A stretch of DNA of 64,000 nt. Origin: Escherichia coli. GTDB lineage: Bacteria > Pseudomonadota > Gammaproteobacteria > Enterobacterales > Enterobacteriaceae. The first letter of the stretch is position 1. Each line of letters opens with the position of its first letter. The stretch lies in the NCBI RefSeq assembly GCF_024700885.2, contig NZ_CP117016.1; one strand, 5' to 3'. Below the pieces are notes generated by a model. The model was not told the DNA's origin. It did no database searches and was given only the letters and a program-made list of their open reading frames with translations. A program made the position numbers and the translations under genes. Below are positions 40,268 through 49,006 of the stretch, piece after piece.

Positions 40268-40708
40268 TTACTTAATAACAGTAACCACAGCCACAAGCAC
40301 GGCCATCGCAGACAGGACAATACCTGTGAGTAACCAAGTCTGATTTGCAAATGATTTCTGAAGTTCAGTACGATGCTCAGCCATCTCAACTTTCAGAGAC
40401 TGGCGTAAATCAGCCATCTCAGACTTCAGGGATTGGCGAGATTCTGCCATCTCAAGCCTCAACCCTTCGCGAATCTCCAGTACATCAGATTTGGTAGCAA
40501 AGGATTCGCTTCTTGTGGTGAGAGTAATCAGGTTGTTTTTGATTTCAGTCACATCACTTTCCAGGCAACTGACCCGCCGTTCAAGGTCGTCATTCATGCC
40601 ATCACCTCCATCATTACCACTTCCTGTTACTTGGTTGTTGGATACATTATAGGCATTCTCTTTCTTTTTTCTGAACCGCGAAATATGTGCAACATTCTCT
40701 GCCATCAC
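40268..40708 (-). CDS. hypothetical tail-anchored coiled-coil membrane protein (prophage cargo)
   Basis: 146 aa; three 11-residue repeats (EMAESRQSLKS / EMADLRQSLKV / EMAEHRTELQK) and a single C-terminal TM helix (WLLTGIVLSAMAVLVAVVTVIK); start overlaps the stop of the upstream gene (ATGA). No family recognised. Confidence 0.55.
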   Translation of the reverse strand: MMAENVAHISRFRKKKENAYNVSNNQVTGSGNDGGDGMNDDLERRVSCLESDVTEIKNNLITLTTRSESFATKSDVLEIREGLRLEMAESRQSLKSEMADLRQSLKVEMAEHRTELQKSFANQTWLLTGIVLSAMAVLVAVVTVIK

Positions 40709-41067
40709 TTCTCATCACCCTGCTTGCCTACCCAGTTCATAAAGGCCCGGGCCGAGTAACGATGAACAAACCCACATCTGTTACAGGTAAGTCGGAATTC
40801 ATAGTTATGGATATTTTCCCGATCATGTCCCTCATATCCCGGATACCCAGTAAATGGACCGATGTAATCAAGCATAACAAAAGTGCCTAAATCACACTCC
40901 TCAGCAGTTTTCGGCTCAGGCCCCACCTCAACAATATTCGTCAAATACATGTACATATCCGTATCGCCACACGACAAACATTTTTCATTCGTAGACGACT
41001 CATTGAGAAAACGCGCAAAATTATCGAGCGTTGCCATTCTTTTAAGCTCATCTAAATGAAACTTCAC
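40705..41067 (-). CDS. hypothetical Cys-motif protein (possible zinc ribbon), prophage cargo
   Basis: 120 aa with CLSC and CNRC pairs; begins 3 nt after the integrase stop. No family recognised. Confidence 0.55.
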   Translation of the reverse strand: MKFHLDELKRMATLDNFARFLNESSTNEKCLSCGDTDMYMYLTNIVEVGPEPKTAEECDLGTFVMLDYIGPFTGYPGYEGHDRENIHNYEFRLTCNRCGFVHRYSARAFMNWVGKQGDEK

Positions 41068-41069
41068 TC

Positions 41070-42047
41070 TTAAGCACCTCCTAGTGGATTAAACCTCACC
41101 GCATCCTGCAGGTAATCCGGCGCAAGATGGGCATAAATCATCGTTGTCTGAATCTTTGCGTGCCCCAGAATTTTCTGGAGCGTGAGAATATTGCCACCGT
41201 TCATCATGAAATGACTGGCGAAGGTGTGGCGCAGCGCATGAACAGCCTGGCCGTCAGGAACATCAGGTGCGACCGTTTTGATGACATCGCGAACCAATGA
41301 ATAATCCAGCGTCGGAAACACCAGTTTCCCGCCCCGTTTTTTGATCTTTTCAAACAGGCTTTCAGAAATAGGAACGGTACGGTTTTTGCTGTTCTTCGTT
41401 TTTGAAAAAGTGATTCGACAATGAAGAACACGGCGCTGCTCCAGTACCGCTACCTCGCCCCATCGCGCCCCGGTCGACAGAAGGATTTCGACAGCCAGCC
41501 GTTCATCGGGATTTTCAGCCAGTGCATCCAGCAACTGAACACATTCAGACTTACTCAGATATCCCATTTCGCGCTCGTTAACCTTCATTCCTTTAAGGCC
41601 TTGAACGGGGTTATCGTTAAGAAAATGGCCGGATGAGATGAGTGCGGTAAACATCGCGCTTAACGCCCCAATCTCTCGATTTATGGTGCTGGGCTGTATC
41701 CCCTGCTCTATCCTGGACACACGTAGCTCGGTGAGCATCGTTGTATTAAGTCTATGCACGCACGGGTCATCCATTGCCTCACTCAAGCGCAGCAATTTAA
41801 GGCGCGTGTTATGCCCTGACTTCATTAGCTGGCCGTGGTATTTCCACCACAAGTCAATAAGCACTGACAGAGGACGGCGATCAATAGAGTTTCCTTTCCA
41901 CTCATTGTTATGCTGTTGCGCCAGCACCCACCGCTCATATAAAACTGCATCCGATTTCGTTTTAAATTTTTTGCGAATGCGTTTGCCTTTACGCCCCTCA
42001 GGGCGCATGTCAAGAAGATACCCTCCCGGAATTGATTTTATGCTCAT
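41070..42047 (-). CDS. int: P2-type tyrosine integrase
   Basis: From MSIKSIPGGY, about 45-50% identical by eye to recalled P2 Int (RPTGRNGKRIRRKF..., LSTGARWGEA, HALRH.F, LGH...TM.YAH). ORF-track start trimmed by 50 codons. Confidence 0.85.
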   Translation of the reverse strand: MSIKSIPGGYLLDMRPEGRKGKRIRKKFKTKSDAVLYERWVLAQQHNNEWKGNSIDRRPLSVLIDLWWKYHGQLMKSGHNTRLKLLRLSEAMDDPCVHRLNTTMLTELRVSRIEQGIQPSTINREIGALSAMFTALISSGHFLNDNPVQGLKGMKVNEREMGYLSKSECVQLLDALAENPDERLAVEILLSTGARWGEVAVLEQRRVLHCRITFSKTKNSKNRTVPISESLFEKIKKRGGKLVFPTLDYSLVRDVIKTVAPDVPDGQAVHALRHTFASHFMMNGGNILTLQKILGHAKIQTTMIYAHLAPDYLQDAVRFNPLGGA

Positions 42048-42096
42048 TCGTGAAACCCCAGCGTTACAAGACCACCATGCCCCCAGCGTTCCATGA

Positions 42097-42405
42097 TTAG
42101 CCGGGCTGTGTACCAGTCTTGCGGGGCTTTTGAGAAGACGATGTGTTTTCTGGCCCATCAGGGGAGAGAGAGGGACTGATCTGCCCAGCAGCCTCATTCG
42201 TTTTTCCTGTCATAAGCCAATTCATGTACTTAAAAAAGCGAGGGTGATTAACAATCTTGATAAGCACTTCGCCCCCTATGTTTTCAATCCGCCCCGTTTC
42301 ATAACGACGCAAAGTGCCGATAGGCACATCAATCAGGCCGCAAAATTCTTCGCGCGTTAAATCCTCTGATTCACGAATCACTCTAATTTTTTCACCGATA
42401 AGCAT
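42097..42405 (-). CDS. P2 C-type immunity repressor
   Basis: 102 aa from MLIGEKIRVIRESEDLTREEF; resembles recalled P2 C (…SEKIVLMRKSEYLSRQQL…QTPQFTKYTLWFMT…) in sequence and position upstream of int. Confidence 0.75.
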   Translation of the reverse strand: MLIGEKIRVIRESEDLTREEFCGLIDVPIGTLRRYETGRIENIGGEVLIKIVNHPRFFKYMNWLMTGKTNEAAGQISPSLSPDGPENTSSSQKPRKTGTQPG

Positions 42406-42444
42406 TGACAGTGTTCCTATAAGTACACTAAGCTTGCGCACAAG

Positions 42445-42462
42445 GTGTACTTATAAGTACAC
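42445..42462. promoter_or_regulatory. operator-like perfect palindrome GTGTACTTATAAGTACAC in the C/cox switch region
   Basis: 18-bp perfect palindrome between divergent repressor and early operon; TATAAGTACAC recurs as a direct repeat at 42418-42428. Confidence 0.55.
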
Positions 42463-42501
42463 CAAGTCACAAACAACCACAGATAGCGCAGGTTATCACA
42501 C

Positions 42502-42780
42502 ATGGCAAAAGTCCTGAACACACACGAACAGGCAGACTTTGAGCGTTTAGCAGCGTTCTATCCCTACCGCGATGAGCATGGGTTACCAGTACTTGAAGAA
42601 AGCCTGAAAGATTACGCAAAGCGTACCAACCAAGCTGTTAACACAGTGAAAAGACAGGCTGACAGAGGTTCAATTCCCATCAACCAAGATGAAAAGAACT
42701 CAAGACGCACAGTAAATCTTTTCGCTCTTTTCCTGAAAACAATCAGGAGCGCAGAGAAATACGTGCAGATGACAAAATAA
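42502..42780 (+). CDS. first early-operon gene (Cox/Apl position; putative excisionase/regulator)
   Basis: 92 aa in the position of P2 cox; sequence similarity to P2 Cox not evident, so function is by position only. Confidence 0.45.
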   Translation: MAKVLNTHEQADFERLAAFYPYRDEHGLPVLEESLKDYAKRTNQAVNTVKRQADRGSIPINQDEKNSRRTVNLFALFLKTIRSAEKYVQMTK

Positions 42781-42794
42781 CGAGGTGTCATTTT

Positions 42795-43133
42795 ATGCTG
42801 AAGCAACGCCGTAATTTTCGTACCGGAACAGAACGCCACGCTAACCATTTCGCTACCAACGCATCACGCAGCAACATCCGCTACAGCCTGAGCGAGACGC
42901 ACGCAACACCTGATGGCCACACAGTAAAACAAATTGGCGAACACACCTGGCTAATTGAAAAAGCTGGAATCGTGGTTCACAGATGCCCACGCAATCCGTT
43001 TACCGGAAACCGCATTTTTGCACTAAGCAGCGGCGACAATCAGTTCGGACAGGATTTCACATTGTACGAAGCACTTCGCACGGTTGATCGTCTGCTTCGC
43101 GGGCAAAGTTTTATTAAACAGACTGATTTATAA
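42795..43133 (+). CDS. hypothetical phage early protein
   Basis: 112-aa ORF in the early operon. Confidence 0.5.
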   Translation: MLKQRRNFRTGTERHANHFATNASRSNIRYSLSETHATPDGHTVKQIGEHTWLIEKAGIVVHRCPRNPFTGNRIFALSSGDNQFGQDFTLYEALRTVDRLLRGQSFIKQTDL

Positions 43134-43143
43134 CAGGTGCGTT

Positions 43144-43422
43144 ATGACCAAAGAGCATGCACAAGGTGTATTTATCCGTTTTATTGATTTTCGCGGTGAA
43201 CTGTTATTGCGCGCATCAGCTATTGATGGAGTTGTCCCATCAGAAAAAAATGCAGCTACTTACGTTTATCTGAACGGCACGCGCCTGACCGTAGAACTTC
43301 CGTACCAGACTGTACACGGAATCATTAGCGAAGCTGAAAAAGCGCGCCAGGCTAATGGCAATGAACCCTATATCGAAATTATTTGCATGGATTCAGAAGC
43401 TGAAATCCAGAAAGCAGATTAA
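43144..43422 (+). CDS. hypothetical phage early protein
   Basis: 92-aa ORF from MTKEHAQGVF, tightly spaced in the operon. Confidence 0.5.
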   Translation: MTKEHAQGVFIRFIDFRGELLLRASAIDGVVPSEKNAATYVYLNGTRLTVELPYQTVHGIISEAEKARQANGNEPYIEIICMDSEAEIQKAD

Positions 43423-43433
43423 AGGGTGTTGCA

Positions 43434-43676
43434 ATGGACAAAGAATATAAAACACTCATCAACAAAGCACTTGAGCGTTTTTATTTTCGCTTAAGTGCAT
43501 CAGGCGCTCATGCTGAACGTGCAGCCCGTGACTCATTGACTAGGGCAATCCGGAGTCTGTATGACGTGGCTTTTTACGCTGATGATCTGGATGCACTTAA
43601 CGAACTTTCCGAGCTGATCTGTGCCGCAGAATGCGGGGAGCATATTGAACCGTATAAGCTGGGGAATATTGCATGA
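43434..43676 (+). CDS. hypothetical phage early protein
   Basis: 80-aa ORF. Confidence 0.5.
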   Translation: MDKEYKTLINKALERFYFRLSASGAHAERAARDSLTRAIRSLYDVAFYADDLDALNELSELICAAECGEHIEPYKLGNIA

Positions 43677-43786
43677 GTATATTTATCTCATGGCTTGTCC
43701 TGATTATTTCGGTGGTCTGCGCCATTGGGATTATGCAAATTATTCATTCAGTAAAAAAGATTGAACGCATTTTCACTGGCGAATAA
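43673..43786 (+). CDS. small hydrophobic peptide (37 aa), translationally coupled
   Basis: MSIFISWLVLIISVVCAIGIMQIIHSVKKIERIFTGE; ATGA overlap with the upstream stop; single TM helix. Below the ORF-track size cut-off. Confidence 0.35.
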   Translation: MSIFISWLVLIISVVCAIGIMQIIHSVKKIERIFTGE

Positions 43787-43873
43787 CAGCGCAAATAAAA
43801 ACCCTAGGTTAAATAAGAAAATGTAAAAACAATCCGCATTCGCGGAGGTATTCGCACACGCCCAGGAGGCGTA

Positions 43874-44077
43874 ATGGCAATTAAGCATTTTCCTGTCGTT
43901 CGTTTCACTTCCAGAGGACGTGAATACGAAGTCGACGAACGCCTGATTACCACAATCGACAAACACCGCTCAGAAAAGGATGCACACCACATCTATCTCA
44001 CTGACGGTACTTACTTCTGCGCCACTAATGTGGCGCGGGTGAATCTTATCCGACAGGTACAGGATCCACGCAAATGA
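43874..44077 (+). CDS. hypothetical phage early protein
   Basis: 67-aa ORF. Confidence 0.45.
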   Translation: MAIKHFPVVRFTSRGREYEVDERLITTIDKHRSEKDAHHIYLTDGTYFCATNVARVNLIRQVQDPRK

Positions 44078-44292
44078 GCAGGAGAAGAATCACTCGCAGA
44101 CATCACCGCACACACCTGAATTCCTCAGCAACGCTAAAGGCACTTATTCAAAGCGAGATCGGTGATTTCTTCGCGGGAGTTGGCTCACCAGGTGAACCAG
44201 AAACACCAGAAGCGATGCAGCGTGAGCTCATGATACGCATAGATAACACTTTTGATTTCTTCTACAGCATGCACGGAATTAAACAGAAATGA
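44074..44292 (+). CDS. hypothetical phage early protein
   Basis: 72-aa ORF overlapping the previous stop by 4 nt. Confidence 0.45.
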   Translation: MSRRRITRRHHRTHLNSSATLKALIQSEIGDFFAGVGSPGEPETPEAMQRELMIRIDNTFDFFYSMHGIKQK

Positions 44293-44400
44293 ACCTCAAG
44301 CCAGCAATAACTATTCGTAGAACGCCAATTTCTGTAACCGACCGCTTCTGAGTTTTTTGGCAGGAAGCCTTCGCACATCCTTAGTAGAGAGAATTGCAGC

Positions 44401-44790
44401 ATGATTGACGCTCATGACTTCACAAGATGGGTGCGCACACAGGACACCCGTCTGGCTCCCATTCTTCGGGGATTATTTGATCTCTACATTCGTGGTCGTG
44501 ACAACAGAGCACGCACCACAAAACCGGAGAATGTGGATACCCTTTATTTCACAGTAGACGACTGCTACCGCGTGGACTTCACACCACACGGACTGGCGTT
44601 GCACTGCCTGACACCGCACGGCGAATCACTGCTGGCGTATTACGACTCCCCGGCCTCCGTATTTGCGGCAATGCTGGCGCATCGCACTGCTGGCGGGTGT
44701 GCCTCGCTGAGTGAATACACCGCTGAGTTTAACCGCCTTTCCGCCCTCTTCTCGCAGGAGTGGCAGCGCGTGACGGGATACCAGCCATGA
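44401..44790 (+). CDS. hypothetical phage early protein (P2 B-gene position)
   Basis: 129-aa ORF immediately upstream of and overlapping the A gene start. Confidence 0.5.
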   Translation: MIDAHDFTRWVRTQDTRLAPILRGLFDLYIRGRDNRARTTKPENVDTLYFTVDDCYRVDFTPHGLALHCLTPHGESLLAYYDSPASVFAAMLAHRTAGGCASLSEYTAEFNRLSALFSQEWQRVTGYQP

Positions 44791-47627
44791 GTGAGTTTGC
44801 ATGGAGCTGGAATGAACCACGGCCAGCCATTGATCCGGCCAGATTTACGGAGCGCAGGCAGGAAACTGAAACCGACCTGCAACGCGCCATCCGTTACTAC
44901 CTTGAGGCAGACAAAAAGGCCCAAGAAGAACAGGAAGCGAAAGAGGAAGCCTTTTTCGCACAATCCGCCATGGGTAAAAAACTCATGGCATCCCTTGAGG
45001 AAGCCGGACAGCGTGAAAAGCTGGCACAAAGCATCATCAGTAAGCGCCGGGCAACAGAACAAGACCCGGTGGCCCGTGCCTTTGCCACACTGAAGGTGCT
45101 TCCCGTTTATCTGCGAGAACCCCTGAGCCGCCACCTCTCTTTCCTGCGCAAAAAACAGGAAGCCGATCGCCGGAAAGGCAAAAAGAGCTGGCAGGCGGAA
45201 CGCTATGCACGCGGAACCCTGCGCAAAATATTCGAACGTCTGGATCGCACTGACGGACGCTGGCTGACACAGGGTTATCGCTCCATTGCCGGACGCGAAC
45301 GCCTGGACGATTTGCTTTACCTGCCGCAGCTCAACAAACACCAGGTACAGACACTGGCCACCATGACGGCAGCAATGTTCAGTAGCACATTCGAAAAACT
45401 CTGCGATGGCTTTGGCGCGACCGATGGTGAGCTGACCATGGATGTAACGCTGAAGGCGTATCAGATGCTGGCCCGCATGGCGTTACATCTGCACGCCATG
45501 CCTCCACATTATGACGCACTGACAACAGATAGAGATCGGAGGAACGAACCGGACACAGAGCTGCTGCCAGGCGCAATCCTTCGCCTGACCTGTGCTGAAT
45601 GGTGGAAACGCAAACTGTGGCTATTACGTTGCGAGTGGAGAGAAGAACAACTCCGCGCCGCCTGTCTGGTTTCCAGAAAAACATCGCCCTATCTGAGCCA
45701 GGACGCGTTAAGCGAGTTTCGCGCACAGCGCGAGAAAACACGCGATTTCCTGAAAGGTTTCATGCTGGAAAACGAAGACGGGTTCACGATTGATCTCGAG
45801 ACAGTGTATTACGCGGGAGTAAGTAACCCGGTTCACCGTAAGGCAGAAATGATGGCCACCATGAAGGGGCTGGAACTTCTGGCCGAGGCCCGTGGTGACA
45901 AAGCGGTGTTTCTGACTGTCACCTGCCCGTCAAAATACCACGCCACAACAGAGAACGGTCATCCGAATCCCAAATGGAACGGGGCCACCATGCGCGACTC
46001 CAGCGATTACCTGGTTAACACGTTTTTTGCGGCGGTCCGCAAAAAACTGAACCGCGACGGTCTGCGCTGGTATGGCATCCGCACGGTGGAGCCTCACCAT
46101 GACGGCACCGTGCACTGGCATATGATGGTCTTTGCTCATCCGGAAGAAATCGACAGCATCGTGGCCATCACCCGCGATATTGCCATTCAGGAAGACCGCC
46201 ACGAGCTGGGCAATGATATTACTCCGCGCTTTAAGGTGGAGTATGTCGACGGCTCAAAAGGCACACCAACCAGCTATATCGCGACCTACATCGGAAAAAA
46301 CCTGGACAGCCGCGCCGTGGATGGCATCGACCCGAAAACGGGCAAACCACGCGTTGACCACGAAACAGGTAAATCAATGGCCGAGAGCGTGGAGCGCGCC
46401 ATCGGCTGGGCGCGCCTTCACCGGGTCCGCCAGTTCCAGTTCTTTGGCATCCCCTCCCGTCAGGTGTGGCGTGAACTGCGCCGCCTTGCCAGCCAGATGG
46501 CACGCAACCCGGAAGGCCCGCAACGGCTGAAGGATGACGCAATGGATGCGGTACTCGCTGCCGCTGATGCCGGGTGTTTTGCCTCCTACATTGAAAAACA
46601 GGGTGGCGTACTTGTTCCACGCAAGGACTACCTGATTCGCACCGCCTACGACCTCGCAGATGAGCTGAACGATTACGGCGAACAGAGCGTACAGATTTAC
46701 GGGATCTGGTCACCACTCATCGGGGAATCCTCCCGTGTGTGCACGCACCCGGATAACTGGAAGCTGGTAAGACGTAAACCGGAAGCGGAAGACAGCACCC
46801 GCGAAAATGATTTTGACCTTCAGGGCGGCCCTGCCGCCCCTTGGACTCGTGGCAATAACTGTCCCCGTGTACAGGAAACAGACAACAACGGGACAGAACA
46901 GCCGGAAGAACGGCCAGCACCGTGGCCGCAGCTCCCTGACGGCGTTGAAGTGAACGAATGGATGCATTCACTGAAACGGCACGAACGCCGGGCGCTGATG
47001 CGTTCGCTTCGTGACAAACAGGCAAAAAACAGCAGCGATGAAATGCAGAACTGGACACAGAGCCGCAAACAGCCACAGCCTTTACCTGATAACCACGAGT
47101 TACTCGCTAAAGAATGGCGGGAGTCTGCTGAATCTCTCGGCCTGCATATTGGTGAACAGCAGATGCAGCACCTGTTACGGGGCGGCAGTCTGTACGTTGA
47201 CGGCAGCATCATTGCACCGCAGGGATTTGAAATTGTACGCAAACCGGATACCCGCCCGGACAGCCGAATCACGCAGCTCTGGCAACGCCTGAGCCGTAAT
47301 CACGGCGTAAGCAGCACGGAGATCCGCCATAACCCGGTCGCCAGCTATCTGGAACAGCTGGGGGCATCAGACCCTGAAGCCGCCGCACGCCTGGCATCCA
47401 CACTTCAGCAAGACCAGAACACCATGAAAACCCCCGTTACCGTGCTTTCTGACATGCTGCGCGCCATCCGTGACGCAGAGCACGCACAGAGAATCAGTGA
47501 AACCACTGAACGCGCCCACCGCAAAGCAGACCTGCTGCGGGGTAGCCTGACCAGTGGAAACAAAAAACAGACAGAAACGGGACTCACAAATCCCGTAAAT
47601 GAGCAAAAAACGTGCCGCGATATATGA
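44787..47627 (+). CDS. P2 gpA-type rolling-circle replication initiator with long C-terminal extension
   Basis: 946 aa from MSEFAWSWNEP; HUH-type motif VHWHMMVFAH and downstream Tyr-containing region (YIATYIGKN) typical of P2/186 A proteins; last 200 aa or so is low-complexity. Confidence 0.8.
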   Translation: MSEFAWSWNEPRPAIDPARFTERRQETETDLQRAIRYYLEADKKAQEEQEAKEEAFFAQSAMGKKLMASLEEAGQREKLAQSIISKRRATEQDPVARAFATLKVLPVYLREPLSRHLSFLRKKQEADRRKGKKSWQAERYARGTLRKIFERLDRTDGRWLTQGYRSIAGRERLDDLLYLPQLNKHQVQTLATMTAAMFSSTFEKLCDGFGATDGELTMDVTLKAYQMLARMALHLHAMPPHYDALTTDRDRRNEPDTELLPGAILRLTCAEWWKRKLWLLRCEWREEQLRAACLVSRKTSPYLSQDALSEFRAQREKTRDFLKGFMLENEDGFTIDLETVYYAGVSNPVHRKAEMMATMKGLELLAEARGDKAVFLTVTCPSKYHATTENGHPNPKWNGATMRDSSDYLVNTFFAAVRKKLNRDGLRWYGIRTVEPHHDGTVHWHMMVFAHPEEIDSIVAITRDIAIQEDRHELGNDITPRFKVEYVDGSKGTPTSYIATYIGKNLDSRAVDGIDPKTGKPRVDHETGKSMAESVERAIGWARLHRVRQFQFFGIPSRQVWRELRRLASQMARNPEGPQRLKDDAMDAVLAAADAGCFASYIEKQGGVLVPRKDYLIRTAYDLADELNDYGEQSVQIYGIWSPLIGESSRVCTHPDNWKLVRRKPEAEDSTRENDFDLQGGPAAPWTRGNNCPRVQETDNNGTEQPEERPAPWPQLPDGVEVNEWMHSLKRHERRALMRSLRDKQAKNSSDEMQNWTQSRKQPQPLPDNHELLAKEWRESAESLGLHIGEQQMQHLLRGGSLYVDGSIIAPQGFEIVRKPDTRPDSRITQLWQRLSRNHGVSSTEIRHNPVASYLEQLGASDPEAAARLASTLQQDQNTMKTPVTVLSDMLRAIRDAEHAQRISETTERAHRKADLLRGSLTSGNKKQTETGLTNPVNEQKTCRDI

Positions 47628-47703
47628 AGCACGCACAAAACAGGCAAAAGAGGGATTTCAGAATCCCGTAAACGGTTAATTAATCAACATAAGGAAAATC
47701 GAC

Positions 47704-48663
47704 ATGAAAATTTGTATCGACGACGGCTCCACCAACATCAAGCTGGCATGGACTGAGAACGGCGAACGCCGCAACGCCATCAGCCCGAACAGCTTCAAGT
47801 CGGAATGGTCTGCGCCGTTCGGTGGCACGCAGCCCGCGAACTACATGCTTGATGGCGTGCGCTATGGTTTTGATCCGGTCAGCGATCGCTTTATCCAGAC
47901 GACCGACACACAATACCAGTACAGCGATGTGAATGTCATTGCCATTCATCACGCGCTGGTCAAATCAGGCATCACGCCACAGGAGGTGGATGTGGTTGTC
48001 ACCCTGCCACTGAGCGAGTATTTCGACACAAACGCACAGCCGGACATGGCCAACATCAACCGCAAAAAAGCAAACGTTATGCGCCCGGTGGAATACCAGA
48101 ACGGCGAAGCATTCACTATCCGTAATGTACGGGTTATGCCTGAATCCATTCCGGCTGGCTTTAAAGCACTGGCTGACATGAGTCCGTTTGAATCCCTGCT
48201 GATTGTGGATTTAGGTGGAACCACGCTGGATGTGGCAAAGGTTCAGGGACAACTGGCAGGTATCAGCCAGGTGTTTTGCGATCCACACGTAGGCGTTTCC
48301 CTGATGGCCGATGCAGTACTGTCGGTGATGGCCACTAACGGTATGCGTACCAGTCACCACATCGCCAATACCATTATCGAACATCGCCATGATGAAGCCT
48401 GGCTGCGCCAGCACATCCACAATGACGCGCATTACGCCAGCCTGATGGCGGTTATTCGTGAAAAGGAAGAAACACTGAAACAACGCGTGATCCGCGCGCT
48501 GGCGGGTTTTTCGGGTTACGGGCGGGTGATGGTTGTCGGTGGCGGGGCGGAGATTGTGGCACCCGCTATCCGCGAAGCCTGCGGAGTTAATGCGACTTTC
48601 ATCGCGGACGGGGTGCCACAGTTTGCTCTGGTTAATGGGCTGTACGCAATGGACAAGGAGTAA
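47704..48663 (+). CDS. ParM/StbA-like actin-type ATPase
   Basis: 319 aa; actin-fold motifs IDDGSTNIKL (phosphate 1), DLGGTTLDV (phosphate 2), VVGGGAE (adenosine); collinear over full length with recalled plasmid R1 ParM (MLVFIDDGSTNIKLQW…YSDVNVVAVHHALL…VMPESIPAGY…DLGGTTLD…GGGAEL). Confidence 0.8.
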   Translation: MKICIDDGSTNIKLAWTENGERRNAISPNSFKSEWSAPFGGTQPANYMLDGVRYGFDPVSDRFIQTTDTQYQYSDVNVIAIHHALVKSGITPQEVDVVVTLPLSEYFDTNAQPDMANINRKKANVMRPVEYQNGEAFTIRNVRVMPESIPAGFKALADMSPFESLLIVDLGGTTLDVAKVQGQLAGISQVFCDPHVGVSLMADAVLSVMATNGMRTSHHIANTIIEHRHDEAWLRQHIHNDAHYASLMAVIREKEETLKQRVIRALAGFSGYGRVMVVGGGAEIVAPAIREACGVNATFIADGVPQFALVNGLYAMDKE

Positions 48664-48667
48664 ACCA

Positions 48668-48979
48668 ATGACGACACCAACCAGGCGGATAAGTTTCTAT
48701 CTGAAGCCTGCGGCCGTCAAGAACGAAAGCGAAGCATGCGCCTGGCTGGACAGCCTTACACCGGAAGCCCGCAAAAGCGGCCAACGCGTGGCTTTTCTGG
48801 CCGGGCTGGCACTTCTGAAAATGAATCCGGCAGAGGCTTACCGACTGGCTGCATGGGCTGACGATGAGGCGTTATCAGTGACACAAACCAGGACAGAACG
48901 CCCCCTGTCACAGCCAGTACCAACCGCACAGATAACCAGTCAGATGGCCGGAAATATCAGGGCGTTATTTCCTGAATAA
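48668..48979 (+). CDS. ParR-like DNA-binding adaptor
   Basis: 103 aa from MTTPTRRISFYLKPAA...; N-terminus resembles recalled R1 ParR (RRTIAFKLNPDV…LDSIP.GERS…AALTAGLALY); starts 5 nt after the parM-like stop. Confidence 0.65.
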   Translation: MTTPTRRISFYLKPAAVKNESEACAWLDSLTPEARKSGQRVAFLAGLALLKMNPAEAYRLAAWADDEALSVTQTRTERPLSQPVPTAQITSQMAGNIRALFPE

Positions 48980-48986
48980 CACAACG

Positions 48987-49006
48987 TCAGGGCGAGTTCG
49001 CCCTGA
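48987..49006 (+). terminator. hairpin TCAGGGCGA-GT-TCGCCCTGA after the parR-like gene
   Basis: Perfect 9-bp inverted repeat; no strong T-run, so terminator function is tentative. Confidence 0.35.

Follow-up and report, generated by a model that had tools for sequence, protein, structure and literature searches.

Eight consecutive open reading frames (ORFs; O1 to O8 below) lie on the plus strand at 42502-44790 of a 64,000-nt stretch of Escherichia coli DNA (contig NZ_CP117016.1; hereafter the window), where both the ORF listing and the raw sequence show them leading into the replication gene A of a prophage. The locus raises two questions, namely whether reading frames this small are genes and what they could contribute to a phage that enters lytic growth. 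We conclude that they are genes, and that the region is very probably the early (Pe-type) lytic operon of a P88-like prophage (Xuanwuvirus, Peduoviridae) integrated beside btuC. The original prediction had placed the eight ORFs in the early operon of a P2-family temperate phage. All were found on the plus strand where it had put them, apart from the start of O3, which was corrected to the ATG at 43144, and together they cover about 90% of the 2289 bp.

Several features of a P2-family early region are present. An integrase (41070-42047, annotated in RefSeq) and a helix-turn-helix (HTH) repressor of the HTH_3/HTH_31 type (42097-42405) are encoded upstream on the minus strand, divergently from the operon, and operator-like repeats occupy the switch region between the repressor and O1. 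The early block ends with gene A (44787-47627, plus strand), which encodes a 946-aa GpA-type rolling-circle replication endonuclease or nickase, named 'replication endonuclease' in RefSeq, that is 31% identical to P2 A (E-value 1e-79) and 35% identical to 186 A (E-value 1.5e-95). P2 itself is not the closest relative. The nearest phages are Chuche, PhiR44_2 and P88, which share 88-94% nucleotide identity and the gene order with the region. The syntenic block that characterizes Xuanwuvirus (DUF4761, phrog_3800, DUF4754, a 37-aa membrane peptide and phrog_3459) occurs here and in nearly all of the 83 related loci described below, with the phrog_3800 gene missing in four.

Both the sequence and the annotation of the operon were already on record, and such an operon is usual in this phage family. 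The region matches the chromosome of E. coli E-1246 (NZ_CP025573.1) at 100%, and that RefSeq record annotates the integrase, the HTH repressor, all eight ORFs, the replication endonuclease and ParM; the prophage adjoins btuC of btuCED. Of 5426 complete E. coli genomes, 1407 contain parts of the operon and 175 at least 80% of the region, and each exact O1-O8 protein sequence is present on 894 to more than 1000 contigs. Seven of the eight ORFs match PHROG profiles (O5 has no match), and all of these families are of unknown function except for a weak Cox-like match of O1. The O2-O6 core or the whole operon thus resides in about a quarter of complete E. coli genomes, which makes it a sizeable pool of conserved phage proteins without assigned function.

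The evidence that the ORFs are genes comes from their conservation. We used O4 to retrieve 80 IMG/VR loci, added three phage records, and extracted all eight ORFs from the resulting 83 loci. Every ORF is conserved in frame, and changes are in excess at third codon positions in each of them. Nei-Gojobori dN/dS values range from 0.03 to 0.31 (O1 0.14, O2 0.18, O3 0.22, O5 0.23, O6 0.13, O7 0.31 and O8 0.22, with O4 lowest at 0.03, a value skewed downwards by the choice of loci for their identity to O4). Starts are ATG throughout. Lengths are stable: every O4 has 80 aa and every O8 129 aa, and O6 has 67 aa in all but one of 82 loci. Frame conservation together with dN/dS values this low means that the small ORFs, including the 37-aa peptide, which is also found in 13 more distant loci, are real genes, as had been predicted.

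Tight translational coupling along the whole operon had also been proposed, and this stands only in part. Start and stop codons overlap as ATGA at O4/O5, O6/O7 and O8/A, and coupling at these three of the eight junctions agrees well with the conservation of the overlap in 83 of 83, 81 of 82 and 34 of 34 loci, respectively; for O6 the overlap is kept whichever gene comes next. Coupling is plausible at three further junctions with short gaps (O1/O2 14 nt, O2/O3 10 nt and O3/O4 11 nt), and it does not extend to the two with long gaps, O5/O6 (87 nt) and O7/O8 (108 nt). According to the GenBank record of phage 186, A appears to be translated only if orf84 is translated to its end. The O8/A overlap may, by analogy, impose a similar dependence of A on the preceding gene.

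The 96-bp gap between the repressor gene and O1 holds a candidate early promoter and two operator-like repeats. The candidate Pe (42405-42434, plus strand) consists of TTGACA (42405-42410), an 18-nt spacer and TAAGCT (42429-42434). It is the sole sigma-70-like match of at least 8/12 on either strand within 42380-42560, and its position agrees with Pe of P2 and pR of 186 as given in their GenBank records. The TTGACA hexamer overlaps the start codon of the repressor gene. A repeat search identified two near-palindromic sites of 18-22 bp (GTGTWCYTATAAGTACAC) at 42411-42428 and 42445-42462, which form a direct repeat of 86% identity with 34-bp spacing, the second copy being a perfect 20-bp palindrome. 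The first site exactly fills the 18-nt promoter spacer and the second lies just downstream, such that the pair brackets the -10 region. This layout is as expected for repressor operators at an early promoter; TTGACA/TAAGCT could serve as Pe, and the HTH repressor would bind at the repeats.

O1 (92 aa, 42502-42780, plus strand) is a small DNA-binding protein of apparent Cox/Apl type, and probably an excisionase and repressor of the lysogenic promoter. It matches phrog_11533 (E-value 1.3e-54) and phrog_575, 'Cox-like excisionase and repressor' (E-value 1.1e-7). In BLASTP it aligns with P2 Cox over the HTH (E-value 0.001), where the stretch SLKDYAKRTNQAVNTVKRQADRGSIPI matches the P2 Cox helix-turn-helix. 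In NCBI it is called 'DNA-binding protein'. Only 31 of the 83 relatives have O1, which hence varies with immunity type, as a Cox-type gene should. Its weak likeness to Cox suggests that O1 would shut off the lysogenic promoter and direct excision.

Core proteins and their possible roles

O2 (112 aa, 42795-43133, plus strand), which RefSeq assigns to the DUF4761 family, has a disordered, basic N-terminal tail (residues 1-27) followed by a compact domain of beta-sheet plus helix (residues 35-101). It is the most conserved protein of the operon, retaining 75-80% identity in relatives where tblastn loses O4 and O5 is 46-54% identical. A similarity of O2 residues 5-37 to the linker of cytochrome P450 reductase among PDB chains (E-value 2e-4) falls in the disordered, compositionally biased tail and is spurious. 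Sequence searches of PDB chains with O1, O2 and O8 otherwise returned nothing meaningful.

O3 (92 aa, 43144-43422, plus strand) belongs to phrog_3800 (E-value 1.2e-56). Its conserved, RefSeq-annotated start is the ATG at 43144, while the mechanical ORF opens at a TTG at 43084. The family comprises 108 clusters, all from Enterobacteriaceae, and is absent from two distant relatives (L087 and L091). In nearly all relatives the +1 frame of the last third of O3 (43320-43450) is open for 51-58 codons. Some alleles of 101-104 aa are frameshifted into it (by a 1-nt deletion in L012), end 17 nt inside O4, and form several protein clusters of 13-29 members. Dual coding in this 3' third is unsupported (dN/dS 0.20 in frame 0 vs 0.68 in the +1 frame).

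O6 (67 aa, 43874-44077, plus strand) is a small beta-rich protein of phrog_3459 (E-value 2.9e-45), preceded by the strongest Shine-Dalgarno sequence of the operon (AGGAGG). Divergent homologues of 71 aa occupy the same position in L087 and L091. O3 and O6 share a pattern, F..RG.E...YL.DGT, but paralogy of the two is not supported (BLASTP E-value 0.27).

O4 (80 aa, 43434-43676, plus strand) is a helical DUF4754 protein (PF15946, E-value 2e-54), the family to which RefSeq also assigns it. Its stop codon always overlaps the start of O5, even in the divergent homologues of L087, L091 and L093-L102 that tblastn misses.

Our best guess is that O2-O7 are non-structural accessory factors of early lytic growth that act in host takeover or as replication helpers. 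Scans of NCBIfam and Rfam gave no informative match, and in the literature we found no functional work on DUF4754, DUF4761, the WP accessions or Xuanwuvirus. The roles of the DUF4761 protein and of the pair formed by DUF4754 and the peptide would explain how lytic growth starts in these phages without P2 B or 186 cII, fil and dhr.

A more specific possibility, which we consider somewhat unlikely, is the one raised by the original prediction, that one or more of O2-O7 counteract host defences or serve host takeover. The O4-O5 pair at the inner membrane is the most plausible candidate, and such a factor might, for example, inhibit cell division, a membrane protease or a host immune system. The genes are early, small, non-structural and lineage-restricted, and the equivalent place in the 186 early operon holds the host-takeover genes fil and dhr. 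The O4-O5 pair is kept as a coupled unit across divergent relatives, and O2 is as unusually conserved as a binder of a conserved host target might be. Yet none of the proteins resembles fil or dhr in sequence, O2 has no significant fold match, and the defence-system protein models of PADLOC-DB gave only a negligible match of O4 to a type IIG enzyme model (E-value 0.012, 11.5 bits). We likewise found no literature on such a role.

It is also conceivable, and in our judgement unlikely, that O2-O6 are helpers of replication or lysogeny control, unrelated genes that take over the helicase loading done by B in P2 and the establishment of lysogeny done by CII in 186. The operon has no homologue of B or cII, and Chuche and P88 are nonetheless isolated, viable phages. 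The basic disordered tail and compact domain of O2 form a layout common in nucleic-acid-binding proteins. O4 is faintly similar to the C-terminal part of P2 B, but this match (BLASTP E-value 0.003-0.007) came from a tiny database of about 20 sequences and is at chance level, and no other ORF matches the P2-type helicase-loading gene. Gene B defines Peduovirus in the strict sense and not the whole family. Moreover, O3 is dispensable in distant relatives, and a membrane peptide would be unexpected in a replication or regulatory role.

O7, O8 and the cargo slots

O7 (72 aa, 44074-44292, plus strand) corresponds to the C-terminal module of P88 gp10-type proteins, here as a short protein on its own. 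It matches positions 34-97 of the 99 in the phrog_4144 profile (E-value 1.9e-22) and shares 51% identity with the last 59 residues of P88 gp10; it has no match in Pfam or NCBIfam. RefSeq labels its 3' two-thirds (44155-44292, CY655_RS28835) as a pseudogene fragment, 'incomplete; missing N-terminus'. We think that O7 is probably a conserved stand-alone gene and not a pseudogene, and that it is fused to an N-terminal extension in the gp10-type proteins. The same short form (70-72 aa), whose own ATG overlaps the stop of O6, is found in loci of the L052 type (81% identity) and in the distant L087 and L091 (47-62%). In the L052-type loci it is followed by cargo genes, and L091 carries both the short and the long form. 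The exact O7 sequence is found on at least 1000 contigs.

The annotation by the NCBI pipeline, PGAP, suggests instead that O7 is a dead remnant, left when a deletion took out a winged-helix gene together with the 5' portion of an Ead/Ea22-like gene, with the 108-nt spacer behind it as the scar and only seven functional small genes remaining. Most relatives do have a gp10-type gene of 98-104 aa with 1.2-2.3 kb of cargo, and O7 has the highest dN/dS of the eight. That value is still well below 1, and the short form with its own ATG recurs in front of cargo genes and, in a distant relative, together with the long form. RefSeq names gp10 Ead/Ea22-like, but its match to Ead_Ea22 (PF13935) is sub-threshold (20.5 bits vs a cutoff of 27) and covers residues 25-48, a segment that is absent from O7; the part shared with O7 thus lies outside it. 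We regard a remnant as quite improbable and retain O7 as a gene.

The 108-nt non-coding spacer (44293-44400, plus strand) marks a variable cargo slot, which in relatives is filled by a further 1.2-2.3 kb of genes. Between the O6 stop and the O8 start there are 323 nt in this prophage and in 12 relatives vs 1163-2250 nt in 22 others, and only the last 44 nt or so of the spacer match the region upstream of O8 in L011. In relatives (L002, 3331-5512, is an example of a filled slot) the cargo between O6 and the pre-A gene can comprise genes for a MarR-type winged-HTH protein, a gp10-type protein, a membrane protein and a 276-aa lipoprotein, a minus-strand ORF, and a gene for a 'derepression protein' resembling P4 epsilon (PF25738). 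Another slot follows O5, where relatives have either a spacer of 86-87 nt or one extra gene, of 136 aa (L011, 3412-3822) or 105 aa (L015, 2808-3125). Both slots are empty in the prophage of the window.

O8 (129 aa, 44401-44790, plus strand) is the 'pre-A' protein (phrog_3237, E-value 2.9e-59), whose gene overlaps A. AlphaFold2 predicts two N-terminal helices, a four-strand sheet and two further helices (mean pLDDT 75.8, and 82-92 over residues 50-125). O8 co-varies with the A allele: it accompanies only those A alleles that have about 83% identity or more to the A of this prophage, and elsewhere a 121-aa gp15-type gene takes its place. The two pre-A proteins are remote homologues (hhalign E-value 1.5e-5, probability 79%, 104 columns). 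No Pfam family matches O8 at an E-value of 0.01 or below, and BLAST detects no similarity to P2 Orf83. A profile combining the pre-A proteins aligns over almost the full length of the DUF5405 proteins P2 Orf83 and 186 CP83 (hhalign E-value 2.1e-4, probability 46%, 76 columns); the same DUF5405 profile gave E-values of 0.14 and 0.7 with the O1 and O2 families as controls. The top match of O8 among viral predicted structures (BFVD) is also a DUF5405 protein (Foldseek E-value 0.044, TM-score on target 0.68). These lines are weak but independent, and agree with the position before A; on balance we favour, with moderate confidence, a remote homology of O8 to DUF5405. Many O8 homologues (including P0106-P0120) are named 'inositol monophosphatase'. 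At 129 aa vs about 260 aa, with no Inositol_P domain and no match in Pfam or NCBIfam, this name is a propagated misannotation.

The membrane peptide O5 and the hairpin behind it

O5 (37 aa, 43673-43786, plus strand) is a single-pass membrane peptide, predicted to be N-out, C-in. The original prediction considered it easily missed, but RefSeq has it as WP_000021664.1, and in P88 it is gp07, a named 'membrane protein'. The peptide is hydrophobic over residues 2-24, where the 19-residue Kyte-Doolittle mean reaches 2.8, and ends in a basic tail; this tail, SVKKIERFFTGE, is conserved in relatives as SVKKIERxFTGE. The ATG start and the ATGA overlap with O4 are present in all 83 loci, where the peptide is 37 aa in 74, 45 aa in seven and 30 aa in two. 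Its 33 distinct DNA sequences encode 26 peptide variants. In 13 distant loci a 41-aa form, 54-65% identical, keeps the hydrophobic segment and an IExxFTG motif, and its ATG overlaps the stop of an 80-aa DUF4754-type protein. The family is narrow, given that an exhaustive HMMER search of 1.84 billion representative proteins found only seven related clusters. In the clade L095-L102 a second small hydrophobic ORF (31 aa, MKNVKAIHTIATVWVIFQVSALIWLALKIWE) stands right after the 41-aa homologue (about 3730-3825 in L095).

That O5 is not translated, and that its conservation reflects a constraint on DNA or RNA, might be proposed for so short an ORF without a PHROG, Pfam or NCBIfam family, but is very improbable given that variable sites fall mostly at third codon positions (9/6/19 at positions one to three; dN/dS 0.23), that substitutions in the hydrophobic segment are conservative (V/A/I/L), that the distant homologues keep frame, length class, hydrophobic segment and motif, and that the ATG is invariant, with the ATGA overlap present in 96 loci. 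We therefore treat O5 as a translated peptide. Type I toxins such as Hok, Ldr and TisB have their own transcription unit with an antisense RNA. O5 lies inside an operon, its start overlapping the O4 stop, there is no Rfam match within 41000-49000, and the wobble pattern of the nearby hairpin places that RNA on the plus strand.

The 87-nt spacer between O5 and O6 contains a conserved 5-bp stem-loop (TCCGC-ATTC-GCGGA, 43833-43846, plus strand), with an A-rich tract before it and GG after it, such that a GGAGG overlaps its 3' arm. It occurs once in each of 92 related loci. Across 26 distinct contexts 99.2% of cells are paired, with compensatory CG-to-UA changes in two of the five pairs. The covariation score was reached by 0 of 500 shuffles, and slid controls pair in only 37-62% of cells. 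Distant relatives keep the stem with differing loop and flanks, and insertion of a gene behind O5 never separates the hairpin from it; the pattern has no match in L095-L102. The two single-sided changes yield G.U on the plus strand (A.C on the minus strand), so it is likely the operon mRNA that folds. A terminator scan listed the hairpin as an intrinsic terminator of the minus strand, on which a T-run follows. This was rejected as the main reading, as the single-sided changes are A.C on that strand, the sequence to the right varies, and there is no room for a conserved minus-strand promoter. Its position resembles that of the terminator after P2 gene B and of tR1 in 186, and it lacks a U-tract; it is probably a pause, attenuation or processing signal.

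We speculate further that O4 and the O5 peptide of 37-41 aa form an unrecognised two-component early-phage module that acts on an inner-membrane target of the host (cell division, a membrane protease or phage exclusion), and that the hairpin is a new cis-acting RNA signal that sets the ratio of proximal to distal expression. At present we consider this proposal improbable.

A model of the operon and comparison with related phages

The following course of events would fit these observations. In the lysogen, the divergent HTH repressor would sit on the two near-palindromic operators and keep the operon off; upon derepression, one transcript would run from O1 through replication gene A. O1 would turn off the lysogenic promoter and direct excision, as its weak homology and position suggest. 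O2-O6 would provide a lineage-specific conserved core, within which O4 and the inner-membrane O5 would be made as a coupled pair. The hairpin after O5 would split the operon into a proximal (O1-O5) and a distal (O6-A) part, O7 would be a small, conserved accessory gene bordering a cargo slot, and translation of O8, the DUF5405-like pre-A gene, would hand ribosomes to A as in 186 orf84/A.

Several points weigh against this reading. The promoter, the operators, the single transcript and the coupling all rest on sequence. O1 has no match to Pfam Phage_Cox, and its alignment with Cox by hhalign is weak (E-value 0.0056, probability only 6.6%). The link between O8 and DUF5405 reaches conventional significance in neither test (hhalign probability 46%, Foldseek E-value 0.044). 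The stem of the hairpin is short (5 bp) and is not followed by a U-tract, and the spacer taken as a whole folds no better than shuffled sequence (z = -0.78). Finally, selection of the loci by O4 identity lowers the dN/dS of O4.

Other genes of the prophage flank the early block. Directly 3' of A are genes for a ParM-type actin-like segregation protein (47704-48663, plus strand) and a protein of the 'plasmid partitioning/stability family' (48668-48979, plus strand), an unusual cargo for an integrating P2-family phage, and an Ead/Ea22-like pseudogene lies 3' of these at about 49043. Two overlapping hypothetical genes on the minus strand (40268-40705 and 40705-41067) lie between btuC and the integrase gene, at the att-proximal prophage end. 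One product has 145 aa and weak, sub-threshold family matches and the other has 120 aa and two CxxC motifs; neither has a significant match in Pfam or NCBIfam. The pair may be lysogenic-conversion or defence cargo.

Among known systems the closest are P88 (NC_026014, gp03-gp16), Chuche and PhiR44_2. These share the order integrase, C, cox-type, DUF4761, hypothetical, DUF4754, 37-aa membrane protein, 67-aa protein, pre-A and endonuclease, with 79-99% protein identity for O2-O6 and the same gene overlaps. The layout of all eight genes, O7 and O8 among them, is identical in Chuche. P88 differs in three respects. It has its own cox-type gene of 142 aa (O1 has no tblastn match to the P88 locus), its O6 and A genes are separated by about 2 kb of cargo (MarR-type winged-HTH, Ead-like gp10, membrane protein, lipoprotein and derepression protein), and a gp15-type pre-A gene replaces O8.

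The early operon of P2 (cox, orf78, B, orf80-83, A) is similar in plan, with a convergent or divergent repressor-Cox switch, small genes with overlapping stops and starts that end in the A nickase, and a hairpin signal after the first block, which in P2 is a canonical terminator with a U-tract, unlike the hairpin here. The original prediction allowed P2 counterparts only for the first gene and the gene before A. This is broadly borne out: O1 is weakly Cox-like, O8 is probably a remote counterpart of Orf83 (DUF5405), which in P2 also lies directly before A and overlaps it, and O2-O7 have no detectable P2 homologue. In BLASTP and phmmer searches against all P2 and 186 early proteins, only A and the weak Cox match were recovered.

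The early operon of 186 (apl, cII, fil, dhr, CP79-CP84, A) has the same architecture, in which fil and dhr follow the regulators and are followed in turn by the terminator tR1. The translation of A appears to require that of the preceding gene, as noted in GenBank. Sequence similarity is confined to A, and it is orf84 (334 aa) that overlaps A in 186, with DUF5405 one gene further upstream.

For O5, possible parallels are small membrane-peptide modulators such as 186 Fil, Caulobacter SidA and lambda CIII, which acts on FtsH. Such peptides come from stress or early-phage operons, are non-catalytic, and bind a host membrane or division protein. O5 has no known sequence similarity to Fil, SidA or CIII, but resembles them in size and in its predicted N-out, C-in single-pass layout, and its sole known candidate partner is the co-translated O4.

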